A stretch of DNA of 64,000 nucleotides from Candidatus Omnitrophota bacterium (lineage in GTDB: Bacteria; Omnitrophota; Gorgyraeia; Duberdicusellales; 4484-171), in assembly GCA_003154195.1 (NCBI GenBank), contig PMCS01000029.1, positions 24,142 through 88,141 of the forward strand, in the 5' to 3' direction. The translations under genes and the position numbers were made by a program. This document shows positions 756-58,962 of the stretch, piece after piece; positions within the stretch are counted from its first letter, which is position 1, and each line of letters starts with the position of its first letter. Below the pieces are notes generated by a model. That model ran no database searches, had not been told where the DNA came from, and saw only the letters and a list, made by a program, of their open reading frames with translations.

Positions 756-3700
756 TTATTTCGCCAAAGCCCATTCGGCGGCGGAAGGGTCAAAATCGCT
801 TACGGCAACAATCTCAAAATCAAACCCCTCGAAAACGGCGGGATCGAAAACCACAGGGGAAAACACAGGCGGCAGGGAACGGGAAGCCGGTAAAACAGCC
901 TGAGGCTTTACTTTTTTGGTTTCGATATTAAGATTGGAAGGATTGAAATCAATACCTCCGGTTTTTTCTGGTTTCGCGGGAAGAACCCCGGTTTTTTCTT
1001 CGTAAAGCGAAGAAAAAGGAGAAGAAGCAACCATGCCTTCCCCATTAATCATCTTTTCGATTCTTCCCATTATTGCCGCTTCATTATGCTCTAAGGCGTA
1101 TTTAAATTGCTCTAATTCTCCGGCGGCAAACCTTGTTTCTATTTCTTCCCTTAAATCAGCCGTCTCGCTATCGCCGGCATTTAAAAATCTATCCCGTATT
1201 TCGCCATCAATAATGCCTAAGATTAAGTGCTTGAGCTCAATATACTTTTTTATAATTTTCTTATTAATTGCGTTAGCCCTCTTAGCTCCCTCTTGCGATA
1301 TCTCCTGGCTGATAAGCAATCCCATAAAAGGCTCAACAAATACTCTTTTCTCAAGTGATTCGAAAACTATCATCCTGTAACGTTCCATAGACCGAAAGAT
1401 ATGCGGCTCAAATTTTCCCATCTCATCCAATAGCAAATCATCTTTTTCCATGTGCTCTAAAATACTTTCCAGCACCTTTCTCCTGAATATTTCCGCATGA
1501 CGTATTTCTTCCCCTGTCACCGCAAATCTCCTCCACCCCTCATCGTTTAGAATAATAGAAATATCAACATCGCCCACCGCAGCCAACGCCACCCTGCCAT
1601 CTTGCGCCAAATACATGCTTGAACCGGAAACAAATACCCTATCAATAAGCCTTTGCCCATCACCATCCACCACGCGGGCTACCGCCTGATTAAGTACGGC
1701 ATTCAACCGCACCGGGTACAAGAAATCGCCTTCGATGATCGGCGACGCGGCAACCCGGCCATTCATAATCTTTTCGATTCTTCCCCTTATCGCTACAATA
1801 TTATCATTTAAGTCTTGTTCAAGCCGCCTTCGCTCTCCTGCGGCAAGTATTTTTTTGACTCTTTTTCTCAATTCAGCCATCTGCGCCGCATCGCCGGAAT
1901 TACGCGAAAGTTGTTTTTGCAGAACGCGCAGCTCCACAGTGTCACCCTCAACCAACCGCTTAAGTTCAGTGTATTTTTTAAGAAATTTTAAATCCCGCGC
2001 CAACGGCTCCTTGCCCGCCAATGCCCACCTTTCCGTGCGAGTAAAAAGATCCTTATCGGCCAATCTTTCTTTTAATGATTTTAAAAATTGCGTTTTATAA
2101 CTGCTGTCGGATAAAAAAACTGCCCCCGTCTTTGCCTGCCTGCTATCTAAAAAAGCGCGCTGTTTATCATAGCTTAATATACGCTTTAGCGCCTTCTCAA
2201 ACCCTTTTCTAAAAATGTCTGCCGCCATCGTTCCCCTATCCACCCTATCGATACCCCGCCGGCGAAATAAGTTTTTTTTCATCTCGCGGCCGGCCTTGTT
2301 CAATATAATAAAGATATCCTCGTCGCCTACCGCGCCTAACGCAACCTTGCCGTCCCGCGCCAGATACTGCAGCGAACCATTTACGAATGCTCTTTCAAAA
2401 ATCCTTTGCCCTCTAGCGTTCCTTATTAACCTTGCCGCACGGTTAAGCGCTCTGTTCAACCGCTCCGGATACAAAAAACCACGCTCAATGATAGGAGGGA
2501 CGGCGGGTTTTTCTTTTACTTCTCCGTCCCCCATTCCTCTTCTTTCTTCCCTCATCCCCTGGTCTTCTACAGGCGACCCCGCGCGGCCCTGCCCCCATTT
2601 TACCAAGGCCTTTTTTTCCCGGCCATCATCACGGCGCCATATCACGCCGCAATTTTTGCCGGATACCATCATTGCCGCTGCGCCGCCCCGGCCTTGAGGT
2701 AAAACACGCTGTACGCGGGCAAAAGGAAATTTGTCCTGGATTATTTTTTTAGCCTCGCGTAATATTTTACGCTCCTTCGCATTATTCTCATGGGTATAGA
2801 AAACAACCTGCAAGCTTGTTAAATCTGGGGGTAACTTTTCCATGACTTCCTGCACCGGGACACTGAAATCATGGCCGTCTTTATCATACATGCCCAAAGT
2901 AAAGTGCCCCAACCCGGAAATCGTATCCTTTTTATTTGCGCCAAATAATCCCATACCGGCACAAACAGAAATACCTTCAGTCGCGAGCCGCGCGTCATCG
3001 GGTGGATTGCGCGCTAAAATAAATTTACTCTCTTCCACAACATAGGCTTTAACGCCTTGCCCCAATTGCATGCTCGGCGCTGTCTCACGCGTAATCAAAC
3101 GATAGTTTTGTTTATCCACATCATAATGGCCAAAATCTTCCGGCAAAAAATCGAAATATTTTATTTCGGGAACATCAACAAATGTCCGCAACTCAGCGAA
3201 TAACGGGTTTTCTTCTTCATCGCCCATCTTCCCTCGCCCCGGGCTTGTGCTGAGCGAAGTCGAAGTGTACTCGCGAACCGCCGAACGAGAAAACGCCCCA
3301 TGAGACGCTCGGTCATCACCTTCTTCTCTGTTTTTTACAAATGCCGGCGACCCCGCCCCCCTCAACCGCGCCGTCACGGTTTTACCGCTTTCCATTTCTA
3401 CCGGCTGAAACGGCCGCTCCACCAACGCGCTCGACACTCCGGCTAAAGTGCAACCTCCGGAAAAATAGCGACGGCGGATTTGTTTTCGGACAGGGCTTAG
3501 CCCTGTCCCTACATATTCTTTTTTAATAATATTGTAGGCGCCTTTTTTGTAGGCTTCTAAATACTTTTGATAAACGTTGTCTTTAATCTTGGGATCTATT
3601 TTATCGATACCTTTAATTTTATTTTTGTCGATATACAGATTAAAGGCGTTTAGCCAGTTGGGTCCGTTAGACTCGTCCCCTTCGGGGAGGCTCCGCTTCG

Positions 3701-4694
3701 CTTCGCTCTTGATCCTGTTATTTTTTTCAGCGATCATCTGCTTTTTCTCATCTGCGATCATCAGCGCAGCGCGCAAGCGCCGCTTAAACCACGTTGCCAG
3801 CACAACCGCGTGATAAATCCGGCGTAATTCGGCAAACTGCTTGCCGTTATTCACCTCTTCCTCGATTGCCGGGACAATGATTTCGCGCATGATTTGACTG
3901 CTTAATTCGTTTAGCCCGTTAGGCCCGTTGTGCCGGTTTAGCCGGTTAGAAGACTTTAACCCTGCAACCGGCTTAACTGGCTCAACCGGCTCAACATTTT
4001 TCTTCATGGCAAGATAGTCGCTTTCAAGCATCACCTTCAATTTCGCTTCACCCACCATTGCCTTATCGCCATCGGCGTAAACTACCGCTTTATCCGGCAC
4101 AATCCATACCTTGCTGAAGGTATTGATTATCCGGTTACGGGCGGGGGCAAGCCCCGCCCCTACATTATTGTTGATCCTTTCATAAACCCTATCCCAGAAT
4201 TTTTTGCCCAAAGGCGATTCGGGATAGGTCAGGCTGGCGGATAATTGTTTTAAGATATAATCCTGGTTCAGCAGGCCTTCGCCCATATCGGTAGCATCTA
4301 AACCCGCGGGGATGACCCTATTTTGCTCATAAGGAGAAAGGTTAACCCAGAGGTCGTTTTCGGGTATAGTTAATGCAGCGAGAAAATATCTGATTAATTT
4401 TTCCGCATCCAATTTTAATTCTTCGTTAGAAGAATTAAAATTGCCGGAATCGATAATAAAATCTAACTTCAAAGGGTCACGGGGATAAAATTTAATACCC
4501 TTCAGGGTCGGTGGATTAAACGCCGGGCTTGCGCTGATAAGCGGATAGGCTTGCGGAGCGTTGACCAGCGTAGAAGCGGAAACGTTCACCCCCAGGCTCG
4601 TCGCCAATAAACAAAGCACCAGCGCCGGGGATACGGCCTTGATCAATAATAGTTTTTTAGTGCCCATCCTTACCATAGTATATAAATGTAACAT
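756..4694 (-). CDS. large secreted protein (1312 aa) of unknown function with a signal peptide and an internal duplicated domain of about 90 aa
   Basis: A long uninterrupted ORF. The N-terminus has a hydrophobic signal-like segment (LLLIKAVSPALVLCLLATSLG). Two paralogous segments are present: IIERGFLYPERLNRALNRAARLIRNARGQRIFERAFVNGSLQYLARDGKVALGAVGDEDIFIILN and IIEGDFLYPVRLNAVLNQAVARVVDGDGQRLIDRVFVSGSSMYLAQDGRVALAAVGDVDISIILN. A palindromic 9-mer repeat element lies in frame at 3908..3995. No family was recognised. Confidence 0.7.
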   Translation of the reverse strand: MLHLYTMVRMGTKKLLLIKAVSPALVLCLLATSLGVNVSASTLVNAPQAYPLISASPAFNPPTLKGIKFYPRDPLKLDFIIDSGNFNSSNEELKLDAEKLIRYFLAALTIPENDLWVNLSPYEQNRVIPAGLDATDMGEGLLNQDYILKQLSASLTYPESPLGKKFWDRVYERINNNVGAGLAPARNRIINTFSKVWIVPDKAVVYADGDKAMVGEAKLKVMLESDYLAMKKNVEPVEPVKPVAGLKSSNRLNRHNGPNGLNELSSQIMREIIVPAIEEEVNNGKQFAELRRIYHAVVLATWFKRRLRAALMIADEKKQMIAEKNNRIKSEAKRSLPEGDESNGPNWLNAFNLYIDKNKIKGIDKIDPKIKDNVYQKYLEAYKKGAYNIIKKEYVGTGLSPVRKQIRRRYFSGGCTLAGVSSALVERPFQPVEMESGKTVTARLRGAGSPAFVKNREEGDDRASHGAFSRSAVREYTSTSLSTSPGRGKMGDEEENPLFAELRTFVDVPEIKYFDFLPEDFGHYDVDKQNYRLITRETAPSMQLGQGVKAYVVEESKFILARNPPDDARLATEGISVCAGMGLFGANKKDTISGLGHFTLGMYDKDGHDFSVPVQEVMEKLPPDLTSLQVVFYTHENNAKERKILREAKKIIQDKFPFARVQRVLPQGRGGAAAMMVSGKNCGVIWRRDDGREKKALVKWGQGRAGSPVEDQGMREERRGMGDGEVKEKPAVPPIIERGFLYPERLNRALNRAARLIRNARGQRIFERAFVNGSLQYLARDGKVALGAVGDEDIFIILNKAGREMKKNLFRRRGIDRVDRGTMAADIFRKGFEKALKRILSYDKQRAFLDSRQAKTGAVFLSDSSYKTQFLKSLKERLADKDLFTRTERWALAGKEPLARDLKFLKKYTELKRLVEGDTVELRVLQKQLSRNSGDAAQMAELRKRVKKILAAGERRRLEQDLNDNIVAIRGRIEKIMNGRVAASPIIEGDFLYPVRLNAVLNQAVARVVDGDGQRLIDRVFVSGSSMYLAQDGRVALAAVGDVDISIILNDEGWRRFAVTGEEIRHAEIFRRKVLESILEHMEKDDLLLDEMGKFEPHIFRSMERYRMIVFESLEKRVFVEPFMGLLISQEISQEGAKRANAINKKIIKKYIELKHLILGIIDGEIRDRFLNAGDSETADLREEIETRFAAGELEQFKYALEHNEAAIMGRIEKMINGEGMVASSPFSSLYEEKTGVLPAKPEKTGGIDFNPSNLNIETKKVKPQAVLPASRSLPPVFSPVVFDPAVFEGFDFEIVAVSDFDPSAAEWALAK

Positions 4695-12213: not shown

Positions 12214-12348
12214 TCCTTTTAAAATCTAGGTAAAGGTTACGGTTAAGAAGCCAGTTTGGGTTTAAGGTAATGGCCTGGGCTTAAAAAATATTTTCAAGCC
12301 GTTACCTTAGCCTTAACCCATATGGGCATCGTAGCCTTAGCCCTAACC

Positions 12349-15314: not shown

Positions 15315-15579
15315 TTTAATCGGATTTTTTCGAAAGTGAAGTTATAAATTCAACAATATCGGCTGTTTTATTCTTCGCGGCACTAAAACCCCGTTTTTCA
15401 AAACGGGGTACCACCGACGAAGTCGGTGGTATAATTCGACTACAGCCTTGCGCTACGTCCTTCGGGCTTGCGCTCGGCTAAGTCTCATTAATTAACACGG
15501 TGTGCCGCTCTAGAATGAGCCTTGCTGGATACCCCGGTCTTCAGACCGGGGAGTTATGGAAGGCTTCATTTTGCGCGGC

Positions 15580-16905
15580 TCACGGCGTAACGGCATAAAG
15601 CTCATCCAGCGGACTCTTGGGAGCGTTACTCATATCCCGCAGAACATGAGTATAGATCATCGTCGTTTCCACATTCTTATGCCCCAGCAGCTCCTGCACC
15701 TCGCGAATGTTTACCCCGTTCTGCAAAAGATGCGTGGCAAAGCTATGGCGCATGGTATGAACCGTCGCGTGCTTGACAATACCCGCTTTGTTAACCGCGG
15801 CGCGCACCGCCTTCTGTATCGAAGTTTCATCGATATGATGCCGCCTCACCTTACCCGAACGCGGATCAACCGAAAGCTTGCTGGAAGGAAAAACATACTG
15901 CCAGCGCCATTCTTTTCCGGCGTTAGGCATCTTACGCCCTAAGCTGTCCGGTAAAAAAACTTCGCCATATCCGGAAACTAAATCTTTGTCATGAAGTTTT
16001 TTAACTTCTTCCAAATGCAAACGTAATTGCCCCTTAACCGCTTGCGGCAAAATCGTCGACCGATCCTTATCGCCCTTGGCCGCACGGACAAAAATTAAAT
16101 TATTATCGAAATCAATATCCTGCGCGCGAAGCCGCGCCAGTTCCATCAACCGCAAACCCGAGCCATAAAGCACCTGCGCGATCAATAAATCTCTTCCTTT
16201 GATCTGCTTGAATAATTCCTGAACCTCTCTTACCGACAATACCACCGGAAGCTTAAGCCCCCGCTTAGCCCTCACCGTTTTATCTAAATTACCCAGTTCG
16301 GCGCCAAGCACATCGCGAAATAAAAACAATAGCGCGTTAAACGCCTGATTCTGCGTGGATGACGACACTCGCTTATTAATCGCTAAAAACGTAAGAAAAT
16401 CAGTAACATCTTCTGACGATAATCCACTCGAACAAATCTCTTTCTTTTTTACTTCTGCCGTATATTCAAAAAATCGTTTAATCCAATCCAAGTAGGTGCG
16501 TTCCGTGCTGTAAGAAAAATGCTTAACCCGGATTAGCCGGCGGGCCTTCTCTAAAATATCTCCCGGGGTATCAGTGGGATCAGCCGAAATTTCCAAATTA
16601 GACGTTTTCTGCCCTTTAAAATGTTCAAAATAAATCTTCAAAGCATCCTGCGCCTGCCGTAACTGCCATTCGCTGGATTGCGCCCCTTCTAATAAGGCTA
16701 AAAATTTATTCTGCTGTTCGAGAAAAGATAGATTCCCATAATTTTGGGAAAACTTCAAAAACTTATCCACCCAAACCGCGCAATAAGATACATACTTAGA
16801 GTCAGTAAATTTCTTATCCAGCAAAAACTTTTGGAATTCCGGCAATACGTTTTCGTAGGATTTTTTCTTTTCTGCCAAGTTTCCCATGCTATACGGATTC
16901 CGCAT
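15580..16905 (-). CDS. intI: integron integrase (IntI-type tyrosine recombinase) with an N-terminal extension of about 105 aa
   Basis: The C-terminal half [92 protein letters not shown] aligns with IntI1 and VchIntIA. This includes the IntI-specific extra segment between the RHR and HxxR patches and the catalytic RHRY tyrosine. The gene is transcribed divergently from a downstream attC cassette array. Confidence 0.85.
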
Positions 16906-17263
16906 AATCTGATATTATAGAGCAAAGGCGGAACAATTCAATAAGAAAATGATATTTTTAGTGCGTAATCGTCATATTTTTGCTAAAATACACAAGGGTA
17001 CCAAAGAAAACACCGAATCCGTATATTAATTGTTGCGCGAAATCCAAATAATATAGAACCAGTATTTATTTCGCGCAACGCGGAGCTCAGGCTTCGCCGT
17101 TCCGCGCTTTGTCGCGCCTAAATTCAAAAATCGTACGCGCAACAAATCGCTCCAGCGGAATACGCAAAATGTAAGCAGGTAAATGCGCCACCTGTATTAT
17201 CAAAGGAACGCGCACTTACCTGCCACCTACACTTTGCGTATTCCGCTGAGCTCCGCGTTAGGC
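16906..17263. promoter_or_regulatory. putative attI / integron promoter region with nested long inverted repeats, ending at a GTTAGGC core-like site
   Basis: Perfect inverted repeats occur at 17032-17042/17068-17078 (11 bp), 17077-17090/17246-17259 (14 bp) and 17153-17168/17233-17248 (16 bp). GTTAGGC (matching GTTRRRY) lies at 17257-17263, about 10 nt before the first cassette ATG (17274). Confidence 0.4.
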
Positions 17264-17273
17264 CAAAAAATAA

Positions 17274-17861
17274 ATGAAAATTATTGCAATAATAGCGCTG
17301 GTCATTGGTGGATTGATTTCTTCTGGTAATTGGTCTACGATTTATCAATCACACAAAGACAAAAGACACGTTTCAACAATTCCTATTTTAGGAGCTATAT
17401 TCCTCGGCATTGGCCTAACATATTTTAAAGCAACTAGACCGCTTGCCTTGCTATGCTTGATTGCTGACTATGGAACGCTGCTCCTTATTATTTCAACTCC
17501 GCGGCTAATAAACGAAGCCTGGAAAACTAGCCGGTTTAATTTGGTTAACGCCCTTGCCGGTTGTTCCCAGTATACTGAATATAAATTAAATCTTTATAAA
17601 AAGGGAATTTTTGTAATCAGGGCAAAAGTTAATCCTCCTCAAGCAACCAATGAGCATGGCGCCTTAATCAAAGAGTTTGGTTTTGAAAGGCAATGGGAAC
17701 AAAAGAAAAACGTTATTGTTTTAAGCCGATATGCAAACAATAGAGAGGTTACACTAGTGCAAAGCAATAATAAATATATCTCCAGAGAAAGTAATTATCC
17801 CAAAGACAGAAAATGTAATTATGATATGTTGGATGGTATCGAATTTACAAAAAACGCCTAA
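17274..17861 (+). CDS. integron cassette ORF: hypothetical membrane-anchored protein (195 aa)
   Basis: It is the first ORF after the GTTAGGC junction. It is AT-rich relative to the flanking chromosome. There are two N-terminal hydrophobic helices and no recognisable family. Confidence 0.55.
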   Translation: MKIIAIIALVIGGLISSGNWSTIYQSHKDKRHVSTIPILGAIFLGIGLTYFKATRPLALLCLIADYGTLLLIISTPRLINEAWKTSRFNLVNALAGCSQYTEYKLNLYKKGIFVIRAKVNPPQATNEHGALIKEFGFERQWEQKKNVIVLSRYANNREVTLVQSNNKYISRESNYPKDRKCNYDMLDGIEFTKNA

Positions 17862-17951
17862 CAATTTCATCCAGCGGATTTTGCCTACGGCACCCGAAAT
17901 TTTCCCGCAAAAACATTAAAAATATGTTATAATTTGTTTGGAGGCAATCTT

Positions 17952-18170
17952 ATGAAAATAACCGATATCCCTAAAATTTCTCGCTTAAGTATAGCCGAAA
18001 AAATTTTATTCGTAGAAGAACTGTGGGATTCTATCTCGTCCAACAAACGCATCCCTGTCCCTGAATCTCATAAGGCGGAGCTGGATAGAAGGCTGCTTAA
18101 ATACCAAAACAATCGGGGACGCCTACTCTCCTTGAAAGAACTGCAAGCGCGAATAGAAAAAAGAAAATAA
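17952..18170 (+). CDS. antitoxin, putative addiction-module component (CHP02574-like), partner of the ParE/RelE toxin
   Basis: MKITDIPKISRLSIAEKILFVEELWDSISS...ELDRRLLKYQNNRGRLLSLKELQARIEKRK matches the small 'putative addiction module component' antitoxin family. A GGAGG ribosome-binding site and a TGTTATAAT -10-like box lie upstream. The stop is 3 nt before the toxin start. Confidence 0.7.
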   Translation: MKITDIPKISRLSIAEKILFVEELWDSISSNKRIPVPESHKAELDRRLLKYQNNRGRLLSLKELQARIEKRK

Positions 18171-18172
18171 CC

Positions 18173-18484
18173 ATGGGTTATTCGTTATCATTCCTTCCTG
18201 AAGTTGAAGAAGACGCTATCGGCGCGTATCTTTGGTATGAAGAAAAATCCCAAGGCCTCGGCGAAGATTTATTAAGAATATTTTATGCCGGCGCCGCTGA
18301 AATAGCCAGAACTCCCAATCTTTATCCCAGAGTCTATAAAAACTTCCATCGCAAACTTCTTAAACGCTTCCCCTACGCTGTCTATTTTTTTGTTGAAAGA
18401 AAAACTATTATCGTTTACGGATTATTCCATTGCGCCAGAAATCCGTATTTAATACAAGAAAAAATAAACAATAGACACTCCTAA
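18173..18484 (+). CDS. ParE/RelE-family toxin
   Basis: LSFLPEVEEDAIGAYLWYEEKS...FPYAVYFFVERKTIIVYGLFHCARNP fits the ParE/RelE fold consensus. It is immediately downstream of the antitoxin and its stop overlaps the start of the attC. Confidence 0.7.
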   Translation: MGYSLSFLPEVEEDAIGAYLWYEEKSQGLGEDLLRIFYAGAAEIARTPNLYPRVYKNFHRKLLKRFPYAVYFFVERKTIIVYGLFHCARNPYLIQEKINNRHS

Positions 18485-18608
18485 CCAGAAAATCCAGCCG
18501 ACCTGAACCGTTCTGCTTCGCGCTTTATTAGGAAGCATAGTCGCGTTGACGCGCTTCGCAGCAACGAGCCGGCACGAACGGTTCAGGCGGCTGATTATTG
18601 TGTTAGAC
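18479..18608 (+). repeat. integron attC site 1 (about 130 bp, imperfect palindrome, ends GTTAGAC)
   Basis: It begins with CCTAACC overlapping the toxin stop codon. The arm ATCCAGCCGACCTGAACC pairs with GGTTCAGGCGGCTGAT with a bulge, and the site ends ...TGTGTTAGAC. It is homologous to the sites at 19078, 19715 and 20163. Confidence 0.75.
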
Positions 18609-18644
18609 ATAAATAATTAATATAAAAACAAAAAAGGAGGGAAA

Positions 18645-19067
18645 ATGGATAAATTAACGAGAGAAGCTCAAGAACATGGTGAAATTTTTGAATCATTAAT
18701 CTTTTTCGAAAAATTAATACCTGTCTTGTCTGATAAAAATATTGAAAAATTCAAAAGCTTTCTCGATGAACATGCTGAGGATCATTTTGAATTTGAAGAA
18801 AAAGAAATATTCCCAATAATATTAGACAAAGGAACAAATGAAGAAAAAAATTTAATCGAAGAGTTACAAAGTCAGCATAAAGAAATACTGGATATGATCA
18901 ATCAATTAGATAAACTAGTGTCTACCCATGGCGCATCTTCCTCTGGAAATAATAAAGAAAAAATCATGAAACTGAACACAAAAATAATTGAATCACTGCT
19001 TGCGCATGCTCGTAAGGAAGATACTGAGATATTCCCTATTTTTAAAAAATATGGAAACAACATTTAA
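18645..19067 (+). CDS. cassette ORF: hemerythrin-like (HHE cation-binding) protein (140 aa)
   Basis: Repeated H...E / H..H..E spacing (EHGEIFE, DEHAEDHFEFEE, QSQHKEILD, LLAHARKEDTEIF) suggests a hemerythrin-like four-helix bundle. It is very AT-rich. An AAGGAGGG ribosome-binding site lies upstream. Confidence 0.45.
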   Translation: MDKLTREAQEHGEIFESLIFFEKLIPVLSDKNIEKFKSFLDEHAEDHFEFEEKEIFPIILDKGTNEEKNLIEELQSQHKEILDMINQLDKLVSTHGASSSGNNKEKIMKLNTKIIESLLAHARKEDTEIFPIFKKYGNNI

Positions 19068-19077
19068 AATAACAAAT

Positions 19078-19210
19078 GTCTAACCATCAAATCCAGCCGA
19101 CCTGAACCGCTTCTGCTTCGCCCTTTGTTAGGCAAGTAATAGCGTTGATGGGCTTCGCAGAAACAGGGGCACGGAAGGAGTGGTTCAGGCGGCTGATTAT
19201 ATTGTTAGAA
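19078..19210 (+). repeat. integron attC site 2 (about 133 bp, ends GTTAGAA)
   Basis: GTCTAACCATCAAATCCAGCCGACCTGAACC ... GGTTCAGGCGGCTGATTATATTGTTAGAA is about 85% identical to attC site 1. Confidence 0.75.
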
Positions 19211-19277
19211 CCAATAAAATAATAAAAAACTCGAAAAACAAAGGAAAATATGGTAGACTTAAATAGAGGTGGGAACA

Positions 19278-19484
19278 ATGAGCGAAATTATATTTATTAT
19301 TGAAAATTCCGACGAAGGCGGCTACACCGCCAAAGCCCTCGGTTATTCCATTTATACCGAGGCAGAAACCATGGAAGAGCTGAAAGAAAACATTAAAGAC
19401 GCGGTAAAATGCCACATTGACGCTAAAGAACTACCCCATATCGTTCGTCTTCACATGGTAAAAGACGAAGTAATGGCGATATGA
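19278..19484 (+). CDS. hicB: HicB-family antitoxin (UPF0150)
   Basis: MSEIIFIIENSDEGGYTAKALGYSIYTEAETMEELKENIKDAVKCHI matches the HicB N-terminal RNase-H-like fold consensus (EGGYTAxxPxLPGCxTxGETxEEAxxNxKEAI). A GAGGTGG ribosome-binding site lies upstream. It overlaps hicA by 4 nt. Confidence 0.7.
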   Translation: MSEIIFIIENSDEGGYTAKALGYSIYTEAETMEELKENIKDAVKCHIDAKELPHIVRLHMVKDEVMAI

Positions 19485-19720
19485 GACTACCCAGAGAAAT
19501 TAGCGGCGAAGAACTGGCAAAACTTCTCAAAAAATACGCCTACGAAATTACCCGACAAACCGGCAGCCACATGCGGCTTACTACCACCCTTCAAGGCGAA
19601 CACCACATTACCATCCCTGCGCATAAATATCTTAAAATCGGCACATTAAACGGAATTCTGTCCGATGTTGCCAATCATTTCAAAATAGATAAAAACGATT
19701 TAATTAAAGAATTGTTCTAA
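19481..19720 (+). CDS. hicA: HicA-family mRNA interferase toxin
   Basis: ISGEELAKLLKKYAYEITRQTGSHMRLT...ITIPAHKYLKIGTLNGILSDV matches HicA (xLxKxGWxxxRxxGSHxxxxHP...VPxHxxDLxxGTLxSILKQA). The ATGA overlap indicates translational coupling with hicB. Confidence 0.7.
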   Translation: MRLPREISGEELAKLLKKYAYEITRQTGSHMRLTTTLQGEHHITIPAHKYLKIGTLNGILSDVANHFKIDKNDLIKELF

Positions 19721-19797
19721 CCAACAAATCCAGCCGACCCTGCTCCGCCGTCGCTTCGCTCCTGGCTTCGCAGAGGCGGCTGATTTTTGTGTTAAAT
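19715..19797 (+). repeat. integron attC site 3 (short, about 83 bp, ends GTTAAAT)
   Basis: TTCTAACCAACAAATCCAGCCGACC ... GGCGGCTGATTTTTGTGTTAAAT. It has the same left and right arms as the other attC sites but a shorter centre. Confidence 0.7.
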
Positions 19798-19839
19798 AAT
19801 AAATGGGAATAACAACACGCTTTGATATAATGATTATAG

Positions 19840-20019
19840 ATGAATAAAAGAATCATAAAAATAACAAGCATTAAGAATAAGGACAATGCGTTTGCTTATT
19901 GGCTTTCAAAGCCGGCTAGCGAACGTATCGAAGCCGTCGAGATACTAAGGAAACAGCTCAATGGAAACGCAAAAAGATTTCAAAGAACTATTAGAATTAT
20001 TCAACAAGCACAAGGTTAA
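19840..20019 (+). CDS. small cassette ORF (59 aa), hypothetical
   Basis: The ATG at 19840 gives MNKRIIKITSIKNKDNAFAYWLSKPASERIEAVEILRKQLNGNAKRFQRTIRIIQQAQG. It falls below the 60-aa cut-off of the ORF track and overlaps the downstream pseudogene in another frame. Confidence 0.3.
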   Translation: MNKRIIKITSIKNKDNAFAYWLSKPASERIEAVEILRKQLNGNAKRFQRTIRIIQQAQG

Positions 20020-20162
20020 ATACATAATCGTCGGCGCCTACGCTCTGGCATTCCCATGGAAACACACCCGCCTACTTTATCGGCAAAAATGATTTTATCG
20101 TAAACAAAAAGTCCCTAGGCCGGCATAAAGACATGGCTGACATAGAATCTATCACTGAATAA
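19961..20162 (+). pseudogene. decayed cassette gene: nucleotidyltransferase-fold protein fragment with an internal deletion or frameshift
   Basis: The N-terminal piece METQKDFKELLELFNKHKVKYIIVGAYALAF matches the small nucleotidyltransferase family (LLxLLNxxxVxYLVIGGYA). After a frame break, only the C-terminal piece VNKKSLGRHKDMADIESITE* (RPKDLADIE-like) remains in a different frame. Confidence 0.4.
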
Positions 20163-20219
20163 TCATTTAACAAGCCAGCCGACCTCGCCTACGGCGGGCG
20201 ACGAATTTTTGTGTTAGAA
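20163..20219 (+). repeat. integron attC site 4 (short, about 57 bp, ends GTTAGAA)
   Basis: AAGCCAGCCGACCTCGCCTACGGCGGGCGACGAATTTTTGTGTTAGAA shares the CCAGCCGACC left arm and TTTTTGTGTTAGAA right end. Confidence 0.6.
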
Positions 20220-20231
20220 AAGGGAAAAACA

Positions 20232-20825
20232 ATGAAATGGGTAGCTGTTTCACTATTGCTCATGATAACCCTGGGGATAAATTCCAGTGTGGAGCCGGCA
20301 TCATCTGCCGCTCAAGATGAACACATCGAAAAACTCATCCAAGCGTTATACACGCATCCCTGGCCGGGCGCGGAAATGTTTGCCGAGCCGATGGAGTGGG
20401 ATTTTCACTTCACCGAGCCGATACAGGCCCTGCTCGAAATCGGCGCGGCGGCTCAGAAACCGCTTTTAGCGCGGCTTTCGGATCCGGCGATAACGGACCA
20501 GGTCATTTTTTTGCTGGGTGGTGTCGGCGACGAAGAGTCGGTTGGCCCGATAATCGCCGCGATGGAACAGGCGTCAAACCTGCCGGCAGAAAAACGTAAA
20601 AGAATCCTCGAGGTGGGAAATTTGGCACTGACGAATATCACCGTAGCGGATATAATCTGGCACCATGGAGGCGGTATTGTCCTTGACCGCTGCCCGGATG
20701 ACCCGGCCCAATGCTGGGCCCAATGGTGGAAACAAAATAAGGCGACTTTTCGGGTGCGCGATATAAAACAAAGCCGGCGCTACAGCAACTACCCGGGCTA
20801 TGGCATCTATAAAGGCCTGCCGTAA
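20232..20825 (+). CDS. cassette ORF: secreted hypothetical protein (197 aa)
   Basis: MKWVAVSLLLMITLGINSSVEPASSA is a signal peptide. The ATG at 20232 lies just after the attC core. The longer track ORF starts at GTG inside the attC. Confidence 0.55.
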   Translation: MKWVAVSLLLMITLGINSSVEPASSAAQDEHIEKLIQALYTHPWPGAEMFAEPMEWDFHFTEPIQALLEIGAAAQKPLLARLSDPAITDQVIFLLGGVGDEESVGPIIAAMEQASNLPAEKRKRILEVGNLALTNITVADIIWHHGGGIVLDRCPDDPAQCWAQWWKQNKATFRVRDIKQSRRYSNYPGYGIYKGLP

Positions 20826-20966
20826 ACTCCTGTCACCGTTTTCCAACAAATCGTTTCAGCGCACCCGCGAAAAGCGCGAACCGCTTGATTCTTTCTTTAT
20901 AGCCCTACCTTGCGGTGATGATAATTTATATAAGAAAAGCGGAATTGGCGAAAAAGACAGGAAGCG

Positions 20967-23226: not shown

Positions 23227-24114
23227 TCAGCTTATAAATTCCAGAAAATTACCACTGGTTATTTTATTTTTTATACCGGGGCCGAAAGCTTCCAGCTCCC
23301 CGAGATTATCCTGCACGTCGGGATTAACCGGGTAATCCGAGCCCCACAGGATACGGTCGTCGCCGAATAAATCAACGGCAAGTTTTATATTGGTAAGGCT
23401 GGCGCCGGAAGTATCTACGTATATTTTCTTAAGTATTTCCGAAGGCTTTTTCCCTAAATCTTTTACCATACCCCTGGCTTTCAGCATCGGATATACCCGG
23501 TCAAAGCGGTCTTTTAAAAACGGCATTACGCCGCCCAGGGAAGAAAAAATAAACTTGATCCGGTAGCGGTCTAAAACCCCCTGCATCATCAAAATCCCCA
23601 TACACAACGACAAATCAAAACTGTATTCAAGAACCGGCATAAGCAAAGGGTCGTCAACCCGGTCAAACCCTACCGGATTATCCGTCTGGGGATGGATAAA
23701 AACGTTCATCTTATTTGCTTGCAGGGCTTCAAAAACAAGGGTAAGTTTATCGATGACGAACTTGCCGTTATAACTCGACGCCAGGCTTACCGCCTTAAAG
23801 CCTCTCTCCGCCAATTCGGCGATCTGGCCCGGTATATACGAAACATCGTCCATGTTGAGAATCGCGCAGGGGATGATCTTAGGGTTTTCTTTCGCGAGGG
23901 CCTCGACTTCGCCATTATAGATCACCGCTTCCTCTTCGTGGCCGCGCAGCTTTTTATGCGCATCAGTCGAGGGATAAACCAGAAGAGCTTTAGCGATACC
24001 ATTGGCATCGAGAAAATCGTAAAGCTTATCCTTATCCTGCCAAACCCCTTGATAAAAAGAAGTATAGGCGCCGATTGCTTGAGGAATGTAGTGGAGATGA
24101 GCGTCACAGAGCAT
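23227..24114 (-). CDS. amidohydrolase-2 family metal-dependent TIM-barrel hydrolase
   Basis: The N-terminal MLCDAHLHY (HxH metal motif) and a C-terminal D in ...WGSDYP are typical of the amidohydrolase_2 (ACMSD-like) family. Confidence 0.65.
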   Translation of the reverse strand: MLCDAHLHYIPQAIGAYTSFYQGVWQDKDKLYDFLDANGIAKALLVYPSTDAHKKLRGHEEEAVIYNGEVEALAKENPKIIPCAILNMDDVSYIPGQIAELAERGFKAVSLASSYNGKFVIDKLTLVFEALQANKMNVFIHPQTDNPVGFDRVDDPLLMPVLEYSFDLSLCMGILMMQGVLDRYRIKFIFSSLGGVMPFLKDRFDRVYPMLKARGMVKDLGKKPSEILKKIYVDTSGASLTNIKLAVDLFGDDRILWGSDYPVNPDVQDNLGELEAFGPGIKNKITSGNFLEFIS

Positions 24115-24122: not shown

Positions 24123-24218
24123 GTTTAGCCAGTTAGGCCTGTTGGTCAGTTTAGCCTGTTGGGACTGTTAAAAGATTTTAACGCTACAACCGGCTAAACC
24201 GACTCAACCGGCTCAACC
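24123..24218. repeat. palindromic repeat element built from tandem 9-mers (CCGGTTTRG units and their reverse complement)
   Basis: GTTTAGCCAGTTAGGCCTGTTGGTCAGTTTAGCCTGTTGGGA ... CAACCGGCTAAACCGACTCAACCGGCTCAACC gives forward copies, then a spacer, then reverse-complement copies. Homologous elements lie at 3908..3995 (inside a CDS) and 25711..25872. Confidence 0.7.
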
Positions 24219-24219
24219 A

Positions 24220-25683
24220 TTAAATATGCTTTTCTCCCTTAACCGCGCCTTTTTCCCATTTGCTAACGCCGCGCATGACATCCTGGAAACAAAGTTTAGC
24301 CAATTCGTCAAAAGGGCTGGTCATGATTCTTTGCACGCGGCCGGGTTTAGAAAAAAACTCCCTCATACACCAGGCGCCAAGCCGGCCGAGATCTTCGATG
24401 GATAAATGGTCGGTAGGCATTACCGGATGCAAAAAATCCCATTTCAGAAAATCAATTTTGTCGTAATCGATCCAGCCTTTCTTCATCCCGATTCTCCACA
24501 TGGGAGAATTAGGCGCGGGGGTAACGTAACCGATCCAGAGGATATCCGGGTCGACTTCATCGGTAAACTCAAACCGCTGTTTGATAATCGCTTCGGTGTC
24601 ATAGTCAAAACCCATCATAATATCCGCGACGACCGCGATATTGTTCTTGCGCAAAATCTCGATGGTTTTTTTAATCTGGGCGATGGTTATGCCTTTGGCG
24701 ACTTTTTTCAATTCCTCTTCGGTAGTGACTTCGATGCCGAAAACACCGGTGAACAAACCGGTCTCTTTCATCAGCGGCAAAATATGTTCGCAATTGATCC
24801 AATCGATGGCACGGCCTAAAGACACCCATTTAATCGGGTTGCCTTTAGCTTTTTTTAGATTGCAGAATTTTTCCACGCGCTTGGCGTCGACATTAAAATT
24901 ATCGTCCTGGATGACTACGACTTTAGTGCCGAATTTTTTATGCAACAGCTCAAGTTCCTCGATGACCCTTTCCGGGCTTTTCGCGCGCCAGGTAAGGAAA
25001 TCTTCCGGATGCCGGGGATCGTACTGGTCCCACTCATAACAAAATGTGCACGCCGACGGGCAGCCGCGCGAAGTGACCATTTCCACAAATGGCTTCCAAT
25101 AGGTATGGCCGACGTATTTATCCATGGGAAATAAATCATAGGCCGGCAAAGGCAGCTTATCCAAATCTTTAGAAAGCGGGCAATGCGGCCCCATTACCGG
25201 TTTACCGCTCGCGTCGCGGGTAGTGGCTCCGGCAACATCTTTAAGGTTTTTGCCTTTATCAATCGCTTCGATAAGAGCGTAAAAAGATTCTTCTTCGCCC
25301 ATGACCACATAATCCACGCAAGGATGGCGTTCCATCGTTTGCACCGGCGTGGCGCTGAACCACAGGCCGCCTAAAATAATCTTGGTTTTGGGACAGGCTT
25401 CTTTGATTCTTTTCGCCGTATCGAGAAAATAATGGACAATCGCGTAGCCGCCATAAGAATGAAGCATATCCCCCAATACTACGACATCGGGATTTTTTTC
25501 TTTGACTTGAGCTACCATCGCGTCCGATTCGATAAAAAGCGCCCGGCAGTCCATGACTTCCAGCTTATCGTAACCTTTCTCCCGGATATACGCGCCCCAC
25601 TGGGCATAAAGCTGGTTAGGCGCCCGATGTTCGCCATGCGTCGCCCACGCGCCGACCTTGGGCATTACGAATAATATTTTCAT
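24220..25683 (-). CDS. B12-binding-domain radical SAM protein (class B), second copy in the window
   Basis: An N-terminal B12-binding Rossmann region is followed by SRGCPSACTFCYEW (CxxxCxxC). 9-mer palindromic repeat elements lie on both sides. Confidence 0.8.
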   Translation of the reverse strand: MKILFVMPKVGAWATHGEHRAPNQLYAQWGAYIREKGYDKLEVMDCRALFIESDAMVAQVKEKNPDVVVLGDMLHSYGGYAIVHYFLDTAKRIKEACPKTKIILGGLWFSATPVQTMERHPCVDYVVMGEEESFYALIEAIDKGKNLKDVAGATTRDASGKPVMGPHCPLSKDLDKLPLPAYDLFPMDKYVGHTYWKPFVEMVTSRGCPSACTFCYEWDQYDPRHPEDFLTWRAKSPERVIEELELLHKKFGTKVVVIQDDNFNVDAKRVEKFCNLKKAKGNPIKWVSLGRAIDWINCEHILPLMKETGLFTGVFGIEVTTEEELKKVAKGITIAQIKKTIEILRKNNIAVVADIMMGFDYDTEAIIKQRFEFTDEVDPDILWIGYVTPAPNSPMWRIGMKKGWIDYDKIDFLKWDFLHPVMPTDHLSIEDLGRLGAWCMREFFSKPGRVQRIMTSPFDELAKLCFQDVMRGVSKWEKGAVKGEKHI

Positions 25684-25710
25684 TGTGAATCCTCCTCTTG
25701 TATTTGTTTT

Positions 25711-25872
25711 GCCGGTTTGGCCGGTTTGGCCGGTTTGGCCGGTTGAGCCGGTTAAAACATTTTATATAATCAAACGGCATTTAAAACAGTCTTAATAAGT
25801 TAAATAGGGCTTGCTGAATTCAATTAATTCAACCAGCTAAACCGGCTTAACAGGCTCAACTGGCTAAACAGT
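25711..25872. repeat. palindromic 9-mer repeat element, copy with a long AT-rich central spacer
   Basis: (CCGGTTTGG)x3 CCGGTTGAGCCGGTT - 73 nt AT-rich spacer - CAACCAGCTAAACCGGCTTAACAGGCTCAACTGGCTAAAC. Confidence 0.7.
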
Positions 25873-26637
25873 TTATTTCTCAGGATGTTTCTGCTTAAAC
25901 GGTATAACCGGCTTAGTCCACGGCGTAGTCTGGTTGATTACCGCTAACTCCAGGGGACAGGCATTGGCCGGCTGCTTCAACGCGAATAAAATCGCGTCGG
26001 CGATTGTTTCCGGTTCCATAAGCCTTCCCGCTTCGCCTGATACATCTTTTAATTTTCCGGTTAAAGGCGTGTCAGTTACCCCGGGAAAAATCGAAGTCAC
26101 CTTGATGCCAAAATCCCTCATTTCCCAGAATAAGCCTTTGGCAAACGCCCGCAAACCCACTTTCAATGAGGTATAAACTAAAAAATTTCTCGGCGGCGGC
26201 TCGACCATCACCGAACCGGAAGTGATATTGATAATGTGGCCGCATTTCCGGTCCTTCATATGATTGACCACCAGGCGCGCCAACATCACATAGCTGAAGT
26301 AATTAGTGTACATCACTTTCTCGATATCTTCAAGGGGTTGTTCCCAGAAGGGATGCTGGCTGGAAACACCGGCGCCGTTGATTACAACATCGATTTTTTT
26401 GTATTCGAGCAGAGTAGTATTGATTAAACTTTCTAAGTCCTTCTGTTTCGTAACATCGCACTGCACGCAAAGAATATTTTCCTTGCCCTTCACCTTCGCC
26501 TTTAAGTCTTCCAGAACTTCCAGTCGGCGCGCCGCCAATACCAGTGTCGCTCCTTCTCCCGCCAGTTTCTCCACCACCGCTTTACCAATCCCGCCAGACG
26601 CGCCGGTAATAATACAAACTTTGCCTTTTAAACTCAT
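25873..26637 (-). CDS. short-chain dehydrogenase/reductase (SDR)
   Basis: CIITGASGGIGKAVVEKLA is the TGxxxGxG motif. NGAG and the YxxxK active-site motif (YTSLKVGLRAFAK) are present. Confidence 0.85.
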   Translation of the reverse strand: MSLKGKVCIITGASGGIGKAVVEKLAGEGATLVLAARRLEVLEDLKAKVKGKENILCVQCDVTKQKDLESLINTTLLEYKKIDVVINGAGVSSQHPFWEQPLEDIEKVMYTNYFSYVMLARLVVNHMKDRKCGHIINITSGSVMVEPPPRNFLVYTSLKVGLRAFAKGLFWEMRDFGIKVTSIFPGVTDTPLTGKLKDVSGEAGRLMEPETIADAILFALKQPANACPLELAVINQTTPWTKPVIPFKQKHPEK

Positions 26638-26875
26638 GATTTACTCCTTTTTTTAAAAAACATAATCTTTAAGGATAAAGCAAAATTTTCACCACCCGCT
26701 CGTCCCGCCTATGGCGGGACTCGCTAGAGAACACAGGGGGCGCGGAGAAAAACTGTTGATTTCAAACATTTTCCTTTCTCTGTGAGTTCGGTCCCTTCCG
26801 GGAGGCTACGCTTCGCTTTGCACTGCGCTCTGTGGTAAGAATTTTTTTATTTTTCTAGCATCGATCTTCTACAAT

Positions 26876-28432: not shown

Positions 28433-28665
28433 AACTTTTTTATGTTAAACCGCTCCGGCCAATTTATTTTTTGCTCTCTATTTCTTTCTTTTTGTTTCTC
28501 TCGTCCCACGTCCCAGCGGCTGCTGCCGCGGGACACCCCCCATCCTTCGGCCTTTTTCCTTATCCCTTCCCTCATCCTCGCCATCTCGTCACCTTTGGTG
28601 ACGGATGGCGAGGTCTCGCCAATTTGTTAACCAAATTGGCGGACTTCATCTCTCAATATCTCCCC

Positions 28666-31190: not shown

Positions 31191-31634
31191 TTATTCAGAA
31201 ACGCAGTTGTTTCCTTCGTGGTGCCAGCTTTCGACGGTACCGTTGGTATTTATTACAAAACTGGTCTTGCAGTATAATTTGTATTGCTCGACCGGCGAAG
31301 TCTGCGTCACATACTGGGTGGATATCCCGCTGTATGGTTTATCGCCGATAACGCCGGAGTGAGAGACTGTCCGCTCCTCCACAAAGGTATCGCCGCCGGT
31401 TTGAACCAAATCTTTACGCGCGTATTCCACCGCTTTTTTACCACTATCCAAGCGGTATTCCTTGCGCGGAACGCCCCAGGAAGCTATCAAAGAACCTTCG
31501 CTTTGGCCGATAAAAGTATTCAAGCGCGCTTCGTATTTTGCGACCGTCGCGCAACCGCTTGATAAAAGAATCATAGCGGCAAAAATAAATACCAATTGCC
31601 TTTTATTCATTAACCGCACCATATTTAGTGTCAA
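31191..31634 (-). CDS. hypothetical lipoprotein
   Basis: MNKRQLVFIFAAMILLSSGC is a lipobox. A nearer start at 31610 is likely. Confidence 0.5.
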   Translation of the reverse strand: MTLNMVRLMNKRQLVFIFAAMILLSSGCATVAKYEARLNTFIGQSEGSLIASWGVPRKEYRLDSGKKAVEYARKDLVQTGGDTFVEERTVSHSGVIGDKPYSGISTQYVTQTSPVEQYKLYCKTSFVINTNGTVESWHHEGNNCVSE

Positions 31635-31705
31635 AGCGTCAGAGCGTCAAGGTGTCGGAGGGATTTAACTTTGACACTTTGATACTATGACACTCTGACA
31701 CTATT
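31628..31705. repeat. palindromic intergenic repeat, family B (GTCAGAGCGTCA / TGACACTCTGAC arms)
   Basis: GTGTCAAAGCGTCAGAGCGTCAAGGTGTC...GACACTTTGATACTATGACACTCTGACAC has homologous copies at 39280..39368 and 45128..45190. Confidence 0.65.
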
Positions 31706-37278: not shown

Positions 37279-37465
37279 ATTTTAACTTGGGTTAGGGTAA
37301 TGGTAACGATGCCTGTATGGGTTATGGCTAAGGTTATGGCTTTATTCAGATTAGCCTTAACCCTTGCCCTAGCCCGAACCGGCTTTCCGCCTTCGCCAAA
37401 GGCTTCGGCGAGACTTCTCCGAAGCTCAAAGAGCGAAGGAGAGCCTAGCCTTAGCCCTGGCCGAT

Positions 37466-39242: not shown

Positions 39243-39374
39243 ATTCTACCTTCGGTTTATTATCAAAAATACCCAATGTAGTTTCAGAGTATCAAAGTAT
39301 CATAGCGTCAAAGTTGAATTCCTGTAACGCTCTGACGCTATGACGCTATGAAGCCCTGACACTCTTAGCGCATC

Positions 39375-41699: not shown

Positions 41700-41906
41700 A
41701 ATTCAACTTAGGGTTGACAAAACCATGTTTATATGTTATCTTCTAATTGGAAAGAAGGAAGAGTTCTTTGGACAAAAGTTACTTAAGGTTGCGTATATTT
41801 CCTAAGGTTGCCCGGTGTTGCATTAAAAACGCAATACTGCCGTAATCTTAGGAAACCTTAAGTAACCTCAGGAACTTTAAGAAACCTAAAAAAAGGGAGG
41901 TGCTTT
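41700..41906 (+). promoter_or_regulatory. pilin promoter and long repetitive 5' leader
   Basis: A TTGACA(-35)...TATGTT-like promoter lies at about 41701..41730. A leader of about 170 nt follows, carrying repeated CTTAAGGTTGC / CCTAAGGTTGC / ACCTTAAGTAACCTCAGG / AACTTTAAGAAACCT units. An AGGGAGG ribosome-binding site precedes the ATG at 41907. Confidence 0.4.
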
Positions 41907-43164: not shown

Positions 43165-43286
43165 AGGTTAAGGCTAAGGTTACGAAACCGGTTTGGGTAA
43201 GGGCAAGGGTTAGGGCTAAAAAATATTTTAAAACCGTTACCTTAACCCTAACCTATACTGGCTTCGTTACCATTACCCTAACCGAG
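43165..43286. repeat. palindromic intergenic repeat, family C (GGTTAAGGCTAAGGTTACG / CGTTACCTTAACCCTAACC arms)
   Basis: It is about 80% identical to copies at 12226..12345 and 37285..37380. All share the central AAAAAATATTTT. Confidence 0.65.
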
Positions 43287-43303
43287 TTTTTAAGGGGGTA
43301 AAC

Positions 43304-45090: not shown

Positions 45091-45195
45091 CCGCTTTACT
45101 CCAATTTTGATAATAAAACCAATACGAAAGTGTCAGAGCGTCAGAGTATTAGAACACCTAAACTTTGACCCTATGACACTTTGACGCTAATCTAA

Positions 45196-46890: not shown

Positions 46891-47046
46891 ACGGCAATTA
46901 AGGAAATTAAGGTATCGGGGAATTAGGAATTGGAAATTAGGGCACTGGGTTATTGGGCAACAACCCTAATCCACTAATTTCCCGATCCCCAAATCCTGAT
47001 AGCCTAATCCCCTGATCTCCTCTCAAAAAATACCTGTGCTCTCAAG

Positions 47047-49318: not shown

Positions 49319-49546
49319 ATAAAAAAATTCCTTAACCTCAGTCATTCCGCGCATCGACGGAATTTTTTTATCTATTTTGTCCGCCACAAATAATAAATTA
49401 TTTAGGCGGATCAGCCTTCGGCGGAAAAACCTTCGGTTTTTTCGCCAACGACGAGACTTCGCCAAAAGTTGGAAACTTTTGGCGAGCAAACTTTCCCCTT
49501 GTAAAAATATTCTACTTCCGGCGGCGCGCTTTGCGCTTGCAGTCGG

Positions 49547-50890: not shown

Positions 50891-51050
50891 TTATCCCCCT
50901 AATCCGGCAAAGCCGGAATTAAAAAAAATAAGTCAGAACTCCGGCTTTGCCGGATTAGGCGACCGAAAAATTGGCGAAGCACATTTTTCGGTTCATAAAA
51001 CCCTGGGGTTTTTTCGCTCGAGGCGAAACTTTGTCAAAAGTTAGAAACTT

Positions 51051-51632: not shown

Positions 51633-51640
51633 CTACCGCC

Positions 51641-52627: not shown

Positions 52628-52758
52628 AATAATTTACCAAAAAACGAAAAAACCTAAAAACCAAAAAACTATTTTTGATTCCCCGGTTTTTCAGCTTCAA
52701 AATTTTCAGGTTCTTTCGTTTTTTATGTTTTTCGGTTTTAGGTTATCCGCCGTTACCG

Positions 52759-55478: not shown

Positions 55479-55724
55479 TTTAAATTTACTAATTATACCG
55501 CGGTTTTATTAAATGGGGTAGGGATTCCAGGGAATAAAAGATAAGTGTGGTTGTATCCGCCATAATTCATCGACGGATTATTTAGTGTTCTATATTTAGC
55601 CCAAAAAATTCAACCGCCCTTTTATAATTGCAGCCATATATATCCGCCCCAGAGTCGTCGGCGGATTATTTTCCCCGCAAGGAATAAGCCTATATAACTG
55701 CGGGGAAAATAAAAAAACCCTGCC

Positions 55725-58704: not shown

Positions 58705-58721
58705 TGTAAGTTTAACTCCCG

Positions 58722-58960: not shown

Positions 58961-58962
58961 TA

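Follow-up and report, generated by a model that had tools for sequence, protein, structure and literature searches.

Two palindromic elements built of tandem 9-nt units stand on either side of the gene for a B12-binding radical S-adenosylmethionine (rSAM) enzyme in a 64,000-nt stretch of a Candidatus Omnitrophota genome (contig PMCS01000029.1; hereafter, the window), and a third is translated inside a 1312-amino-acid (aa) open reading frame (ORF). The question raised by this locus is whether the three are copies of one dispersed repeat or instead binding sites, locally formed hairpins, recombination substrates or, in the coding case, an old part of the protein. We conclude, with a probability of roughly 70%, that the two intergenic elements (E1 and E2) and the in-frame element (E3) are copies of one dispersed repeat, which is small, palindromic and non-autonomous. 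A preliminary description had pointed out all three, which were recovered within a few bases of the positions it gave, with E3 read in frame exactly as quoted there (NVEPVEPVKPVAGLKSSNRLNRHNGPNGLNEL).

All three elements have the general layout (GTTNRGCCN)n, loop, (NGGCYNAAC)n. Allowing up to two mismatches, CCGGTTNRGCCGGTT matched the window 19 times compared to 1.1 expected (100 shuffles, largest count 5), and 16 of these 19 matches fell within E1, E2 and E3. Tandem Repeats Finder likewise reported 9-nt arrays at 3908-3947/3965-3995, 24187-24218 and 25706-25753/25831-25869. On the gene-sense (minus) strand, E1 and E3 have a common 24-nt apex, GTTGYAGSGTTAAARTCTYYTAAC, a mini stem-loop in its own right, and E3 is 77% identical to E1. 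Both arms are present in E2, where five units make up the right arm (four of them the same, CCGGTTTGG when read on the plus strand), and the loop keeps only a partial apex, TAAAATGTTTTAAC. The three elements fold as long imperfect hairpins (-40.3, -43.4 and -55.2 kcal/mol; z = -3.9, -6.3 and -5.4), with none of 200 shuffles as stable.

The same apex was found outside the window in other Omnitrophota genomes: twice in the contig encoding P0002, a homolog of the 1312-aa protein (locus L120), and in exactly two Joint Genome Institute (JGI) metagenome loci, L121 and L122. Together with E2, this gave a set of seven copies from four genomes, and across the six with a conserved apex (four genomes) 22-24 of the 24 apex positions agree. 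The 5' arm comprises exactly three GTTNRGNCN units in five of these six copies, four units in L122 and about five in E2, while the 3' arm, with copies aligned in register, comprises two to six complementary units (NGNCNNAAC). Arm lengths vary independently (four versus six units in L122, three versus two in L121). The 5' boundary, which reads GTTG or GTTA, is sharp and preceded by A-rich sequence, and the 3' boundary shifts by whole units, with element lengths ranging from 69 to 166 nt.

A profile built from the six copies and run against the window recovered E1 (87 bits), E2 (41 bits, minus strand) and E3 (91 bits on the minus strand, 40 on the plus strand), plus a decayed right arm elsewhere in the 1312-aa ORF (Table 1). 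One further match (57548-57576; 7.5 bits, E = 0.8), near the reporting limit, is probably due to chance. Because the six-copy profile scores 72-92 bits in the sense orientation but only ~31-43 bits in antisense, the elements have polarity. All seven copies, including E2, lie in sense to their flanking or host genes, which suggests an orientation bias, bearing in mind that the sample is small and that two of six frame-and-orientation combinations are open to coding copies.

These comparisons also bear on a distinctly unlikely alternative, in which local duplication and slippage would have given rise to a terminator-like palindrome at each site separately, without copying between sites. It would account for the differing unit numbers of the two arms, for the many families in the window with different units and for an orthologous rSAM cluster whose spacer carries a different array hairpin, (GCACCTGT)4-loop-(ACTGGTGC)4. 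Independent origin, however, cannot explain an apex common to four genomes, conserved at 22-24 of its 24 nt in both coding and intergenic contexts, with flanks that are unrelated or ~59% identical. From one genome to another, the elements retain 80-86% identity, compared to ~59% for the coding DNA around them; between E3 and copies located at different sites of other genomes, identity is 82-86%. Two further families in the window, with 6-nt and 8-nt units, are also similar over whole elements between sites and genomes.

Evidence that the coding copy is an insertion comes from the host protein. The 1312-aa ORF is a real gene, since it has 1645 homologs (among the candidates scored) and a 100% identical counterpart, P0001, in a JGI assembly; no Pfam family was matched. 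The great majority of homologs of this protein, and of the rSAM enzyme, carry the annotation Candidatus Omnitrophota. An alignment of 120 homologs gave the lengths of three loops. At site 1, which holds E3, the mode is 25 aa (51 of 120; range, 12-57) compared to 34 aa here and 37 in P0002. Site 2 measures 5 aa in 108 of 120 homologs, 30 in P0002 and 43 here, and site 3 measures 9 aa in 116 of 120 and 28 in the protein of L121. The additional sequence at site 2 of P0002 includes an intact 78-nt element, exact removal of which restores the 5-aa loop; the window protein carries the decayed right arm beside another repeat at this site, its left arm apparently replaced by a GATGATCGC-type repeat at ~3700-3770; and the L121 protein has a 69-nt element at site 3. 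The peptide encoded by the element is shared with P0002 only, and the remaining 118 of 120 homologs lack the element. A search with the 32-aa peptide returned P0002 as the sole match among 1.84 billion representative proteins, and a profile search of proteins with the element peptide yielded 72 candidates with common words, none at E <= 10.

The alternative that the coding segment is an old low-complexity linker, similar to the intergenic repeats by resemblance alone, therefore has next to no probability, even though site 1 varies in length across the family (12-57 aa) and P0002 has this sequence at the identical codon position. Besides the 118 homologs without it, the segment is a DNA palindrome with the 24-nt apex of the intergenic copies E1 and L122; between the window and L120 ORFs the element is 80% identical compared to 58-59% for flanking codons; and the insertions at sites 2 and 3 break loops of otherwise fixed length. 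The proposal that E3 is an in-frame insertion of a dispersed palindromic element is thus supported by the apex it has in common with E1, by its presence in a single other homolog of 120 and by the two other loops hit in relatives, and the ortholog alignment that the preliminary description had called for speaks against an ancestral segment.

The loops appear to tolerate such additions. When the N-terminal 480 aa were modelled with AlphaFold at moderate quality (30-sequence alignment; mean predicted local distance difference test (pLDDT) 64.6, predicted template modelling score 0.59), the E3 insert was predicted as a low-confidence coil between helices 224-234 and 258-283, with residues 236-242 and 244-256 modelled as coil at pLDDT <50. 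The model of the N-terminal domain had no match in the PDB at E <= 0.001; this domain is common to >1600 large proteins with varied C-terminal enzyme domains. Site-1 peptides of seven other homologs (P0006, P0023, P0029, P0080, P0087, P0102 and P0107) look as if they were read from hairpin repeats of other, unrelated kinds (among them VGVDPCVDP...GRTHRSAPT and MDSRFRGNDK). Since such peptides occur in the same loops, these are generally permissive, and palindromic repeats in general seem to accumulate at site 1. At site 2 of the window protein, a GATGATCGC-type repeat (CTGATGATCGCAGATGAG...CAGATGATCGCTGA; 3700-3770) is translated next to the 9-mer remnant, which indicates nested repeat insertions in a coding loop.

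Reading frame offers a simple account of how copies persist within genes. The lengths of the four coding copies (87, 96, 78 and 69 nt) are all divisible by three, and the copies are stop-free solely in sense frame 1 and antisense frame 2. The intergenic copy E1 has stop codons in every frame. The open sense frame encodes V-E-P...A-G-L-K-S-x-N-G-L-N. As every module is a multiple of three (9-nt unit, 24-nt apex) and one sense frame is free of stops, copies survive inside genes.

The intergenic copies occupy most of the spacers in which they lie. E1 covers 95 of the 105 nt from the rSAM stop codon (24220) to the ATG of an amidohydrolase gene (24114), and E2 covers 166 of the 189 nt from the stop codon of a short-chain dehydrogenase (SDR) gene (25873) to the rSAM ATG (25683). 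Relatives have a syntenic cluster (MFS-SDR-rSAM-amidohydrolase-aminotransferase-IF-2B-like) with rSAM proteins 83-84% identical to that of the window, and in two such clusters, L123 and L125, E1 and E2 are missing. There, the SDR-rSAM spacer measures 15 and 96 bp, respectively, compared to 189 bp in the window; the rSAM-amidohydrolase spacer, 37 and 1 bp compared to 105 bp; and the MFS-SDR spacer, which other repeats occupy in the window, 18 and 16 bp compared to 238 bp. The 96-bp spacer of L125 (5905-6000) holds the different array hairpin mentioned above, with right-arm units ACTGGTGC or TCTGGYGC (four units per arm). E1, E2 and E3 are insertions. Elsewhere in the orthologous cluster, an Avd-like gene (23S_rRNA_IVP/bAvd; L125 461-850 and L126 147-536) lies between two ketosynthase genes; the bAvd family is an accessory protein of diversity-generating retroelements.

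Table 1 Positions in the window of the 9-mer elements, of the genes that hold or adjoin them and of other array hairpins
Feature	Position	Strand	Context
E3, in-frame copy (87 nt, 29 codons)	3909..3995	-	inside 1312-aa ORF
E3 left arm (3 units)	3969-3995
E3 apex	3945-3968
E3 right arm (4 units)	3909-3944
E1, intergenic copy	24123..24217	-	between rSAM stop codon and amidohydrolase ATG
E1 left arm	24191-24217
E1 apex	24167-24190
E1 right arm (includes one 8-nt unit)	24123-24166
E2, intergenic copy	25706..25871	-	between SDR and rSAM genes
E2 left arm (sense strand)	25831-25871
E2 loop (77 nt, AT-rich)	25754-25830
E2 right arm	25706-25753
Decayed right-arm remnant	3646..3671	-	codons SNGPNWLN at loop site 2 of 1312-aa ORF; 12 bits, E = 0.028
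Host gene, 1312-aa secreted-type protein	756..4694	-	Omnitrophota-specific N-terminal domain of ~400 aa
Amidohydrolase gene	23227..24114	-	ATG 8 nt past end of E1
B12-binding rSAM gene	24220..25683	-	flanked by E1 and E2, outside the elements
SDR gene	25873..26637	-	stop codon abuts E2
6-mer GGYTAA/GGTAAC family	12214-12335, 37370-37465, 43181-43300		own conserved apex
8-mer GTCANAGY family	31627-31704, 39280-39367, 45127-45189		all intergenic
A-rich 8-mer array hairpin	52636-52739
7-mer elements	~46900-47040, 58764-58910
10-mer element	41780-41890

Flanking of a single gene by two related palindromes had raised the possibility that E1 and E2 are substrates for recombination or phase variation, through inversion or deletion of the rSAM gene, and palindromes of the mitochondrial LIMP family can indeed mediate rearrangements in their genome (PMC4524435). 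The data give this idea little room, and we consider it very improbable. A second assembly of the same genome (L124) is collinear with the window over 12,255 bp with five mismatches and no gaps, the JGI protein is identical across the element in the coding copy, and gene order is unchanged in orthologs without the elements. The tyrosine recombinase gene of the window (15580-16905) is not adjacent, and flanking is expected from density alone: the 238-bp MFS-SDR spacer and >20 other spacers are filled with hairpins. Since long hairpins are found in all spacers of the operon and in >20 further gaps of the window, the position of E1 and E2 around the rSAM gene is not special but incidental.

This density is a general property of the window. 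An inverted partner lies within 260 bp of 14 of its 23 short-period arrays, compared to none in 18 of 20 block shuffles, and at least 14 array hairpins with unit sizes of 6 to 10 nt occupy gaps between genes. At least 22 of 42 intergenic gaps contain a hairpin of >=20 pairs, including the pheS-pheT and rplT-pheS spacers. Copies of the GTCANAGY family are 78-81% identical to two sequences in L122 (794-877 and 2761-2828), a locus that thereby carries both the 9-mer and the 8-mer families, and the 6-mer copies at 12214 and 43181 have a common apex, CGGYTTKAAAATATTTTTTA(A)GCCC.

Other repeats were seen alongside these families. Large nested inverted repeats at 58705-58962 and 60001-60160 occupy the pheS-pheT and rplT-pheS spacers, within the housekeeping cluster thrS-infC-rplT-pheST, and combine a 7-mer array hairpin inside a GATGATCGC-type repeat into a 90-pair fold. 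Small repeats at 28553-28660, 26768-26861, 51620-51683, 15428-15490, 49522-49559 and 56020-56053 are 75-92% identical to sequences in L120, L121 and L122, from genomes otherwise diverged from that of the window. Two simple hairpins with 20-23-bp stems and common ends, CCTAATCCGGCAA...GCCGGATTAGG (611-673 and 50898-50959), look like a REP-like family. A 1.2-kb ORF-free gap contains tandem structured RNAs on the minus strand (55713-55868 and 56248-56375), each ending in a terminator-like stem and U-run, which score 31 and 37 bits against the Rfam model of 6S RNA, below its gathering score of 46.4. The tyrosine recombinase gene adjoins a 368-bp gap rich in inverted repeats and a low-GC (0.39) stretch with plus-strand genes and genes for a hemerythrin and a HicA toxin; this region (15580-20900) may be an integrated element.

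The position of the arrays relative to genes is pertinent to another unlikely explanation, that they are protein-binding iterons: a regulator that binds DNA or RNA would recognize the A/C-rich (YNAACCGG)n units immediately ahead of start codons, and the palindromic layout would reflect two sites flanking a promoter or 5' untranslated region. The 3' arm does end 8-30 nt ahead of the downstream ATG in E1, L122 and E2, and the E2 loop contains a 10/12 match to a sigma-70-like promoter. In the Desulfobacteraceae-labelled loci L067 and L079, arrays lie 150-200 bp apart in divergent regions, each beside a start codon, and TAACTGA arrays in Beggiatoaceae are similarly placed just upstream of start codons (PMC4679880). 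On the other hand, four copies are translated inside ORFs, the promoter-like match in E2 points antisense to the genes and orthologous operons work without the elements. The apex is conserved, not the units alone, and no candidate binding protein was identified.

If the elements are copies of a dispersed repeat, as we favor, copying would have carried whole elements, including the apex, to new sites, leaving no target-site duplication that could be detected. The majority of copies would then persist in short spacers between co-directional genes, and one landing in frame in a tolerant surface loop may survive as an extra peptide. After insertion, arm unit numbers would change independently, most likely by the later slippage of units to which the unequal arm lengths point, and copies would decay by point mutation. 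Transcribed intergenic copies are predicted to form imperfect hairpins of 30-45 bp without a U-tract. These would be read through, because no terminator-like site was found on the gene strand at E1 or E2 and similar hairpins lie inside housekeeping operons. By analogy with REP/BIME, ERIC, Correia and LIMP elements, they may be neutral or modulatory intra-operon structures (an exonuclease barrier or RNase III-type processing site), and probably not terminators or switches.

Several observations weigh against this interpretation. The window has 57 ORFs of >=100 aa, none of which matched a transposase family; a mobility enzyme was not identified, and the sole recombinase is the tyrosine recombinase at 15580-16905. 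Neither a target-site duplication nor a fixed terminal tag was seen at six copies. The sample is small, with seven copies from four genomes, and copies within a genome are only 77% identical, with no sign of a recent burst. There was no length polymorphism between the two assemblies, and P0001 is 100% identical across the element. E3 and the first copy in L120 sit at exactly the same codon position and may represent one inherited event. The net gain at site 1 is just 9 aa over the modal 25-aa linker, so that the 29-codon element either took the place of most of a linker or was inserted into a short one. At the RNA level, folding energies gave no consistent advantage to the sense strand, and covariation across six copies was essentially nil, with paired columns nearly invariant and the test without power; nothing in these two results shows RNA-level selection.

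We also looked for the arrays beyond Omnitrophota. A contig scan with the loose pattern CCGGTTNRGCCGGTTNRGCC returned at least 119 loci, mostly in high-GC coding DNA, and no Omnitrophota genome was among the matches listed. Loci from metagenome-assembled genomes titled Desulfobacterales or Desulfobacteraceae (labels taken from record titles) contained the same 9-mer arrays in palindromic arrangement, among them L010. Loops were short in L023 (2024-2140), L041, L061 and L069, and spacers of 150-200 bp were found in the divergent intergenic regions of L067 (2175-2430), L079 (2115-2435) and L089 (1660-1880), some of these arrays flanking divergent promoters with each array beside a start codon. 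Apices in these loci differ from that of Omnitrophota, and several elements were found per 8-kb locus. In Microcoleus and Tychonema loci, CCGGTTTGG units occur within heptamer arrays and lack an inverted partner. The apex had no match in viral contigs, where an 18-mer gave four chance matches in coding DNA without arrays, and sequence comparison offers no sign of a phage vector. Searches of Rfam found nothing at the gathering threshold, only sub-threshold microRNA-precursor models that reflect a generic long-hairpin match, and searches of a literature library for array 15-mers and Omnitrophota repeats found nothing.

These occurrences allow a broader proposal, which we regard as speculative and unlikely to hold in full: that array hairpins are a distinct class of bacterial repeat with a dedicated mechanism, that the 9-mer family is horizontally shared between Omnitrophota and Desulfobacterales in the same sediments and that repeated colonization of three loops in one lineage-specific protein domain is a way of diversifying surface proteins. 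Such a mechanism may, for example, involve reiterative synthesis of units followed by snap-back copying, or a hairpin-recognizing nuclease. Omnitrophota have been reported as host-dependent nanobacteria. Should the connection with Desulfobacterales hold, gene flow between the two groups could be followed by means of the elements, and sharing of the 9-mer family would mark the passage of DNA between a parasite and its host.

For annotation, our results imply that odd low-complexity peptides in large proteins, such as PVEPV...AGLKS...NGLN, are translated repeats and not domains, and that inflated intra-operon spacers are repeat insertions. Because the elements can be the sole DNA-level similarity between diverged genomes, they can also confuse binning and homology searches.

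Finally, we compared the elements to known systems. Like REP, BIME and REPIN sequences, they are palindromes in transcribed operon spacers, often numerous and strand-biased, without a target-site duplication; E1, E2 and the copy in L122 take up spacers whose flanking genes are co-directional, and the coding copies are the exception to an extragenic location. REP sequences, however, are 20-40-bp palindromes with a GTAG or CGTC tag that are mobilized by RAYTs (PMC3733652, PMC3116915), whereas the elements described here are 69-166 nt long, start with GTTG or GTTA, have internally repetitive arms and lack either tag. No RAYT (Y1 HUH transposase) was found in the 64-kb window. Miniature inverted-repeat transposable elements (MITEs) such as Correia/NEMIS, ERIC and Nezha consist of terminal inverted repeats around a core and are bordered by target-site duplications (PMC3184786). 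The elements resemble them in being small and non-coding as a unit, in having inverted repeats that give a long RNA stem-loop, in the filled and empty sites between relatives and in occasional fusion to ORFs, but differ in that the whole element is the palindrome, its 3' boundary varies by units and no duplication was seen. With no target-site duplication, and with size and tag unlike those of REP sequences, they are neither classical MITEs nor REPs. Of the likening to MITEs of the RPE, Correia or NEMIS kind in the preliminary description, the RPE-like in-frame behavior is supported.

Direct repeats provide a second comparison. The elements are similar to cyanobacterial heptamers of the STRR type and to the TAACTGA arrays of Beggiatoaceae in consisting of short tandem intergenic units, often just upstream of starts and across distant phyla (PMC4679880). 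These are direct arrays without a complementary partner, whereas an inverted partner and an apex define the present element; the BOGUAY genome, for instance, contains 169 direct repeat sets compared to one indirect (PMC4679880). Simple (A)n/(T)n palindromes are known from Fusarium mitochondrial DNA (PMC7218506).

The in-frame copies behave like the RPE of Rickettsia (Ogata et al. 2000, as reviewed in PMC3184786), palindromic dispersed repeats of ~100 nt that are both intergenic and in frame, where they add a peptide segment, and like the other in-frame fusions of repeats covered by that review. Both kinds of element occur in ORFs at sites empty in homologs. On that description, the arms of an RPE lack a tandem short-unit structure, and the phylum and the sequences are different.

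The closest architectural precedent we found is LIMP, from the mitochondrion of the green alga Lobosphaera incisa, which has the form (AACCA)m, an invariant 7-nt loop, (TGGTT)n, with unequal arms (PMC4524435). Its intergenic copies are dispersed in polycistronic units with decayed remnants nearby, a related form (HyLIMP) has a 10-nt unit and breaks in RNA-seq coverage at long stems suggest processing sites (PMC4524435). LIMP and the window elements have in common arms of tandem short units and their complements, a conserved loop between them, unequal arm lengths and remnants. They differ in that LIMP has a 5-nt AACCA unit and a 7-nt loop and is intergenic only, whereas the bacterial elements have 9-nt units and a 24-nt apex, belong to one of several unit families and are in some cases translated. 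There is no sequence relationship between the two, which represent the same architecture and not the same family. Among small bacterial palindromic dispersed repeats, what distinguishes the elements is the tandem units of the arms, the conservation of the apex and module lengths that are without exception divisible by three. They extend to bacteria the tandem-unit-arm palindrome with a conserved loop, so far peculiar to one algal mitochondrion, and provide a simple rule for why one such family enters proteins, namely, modules in multiples of three and one open frame.

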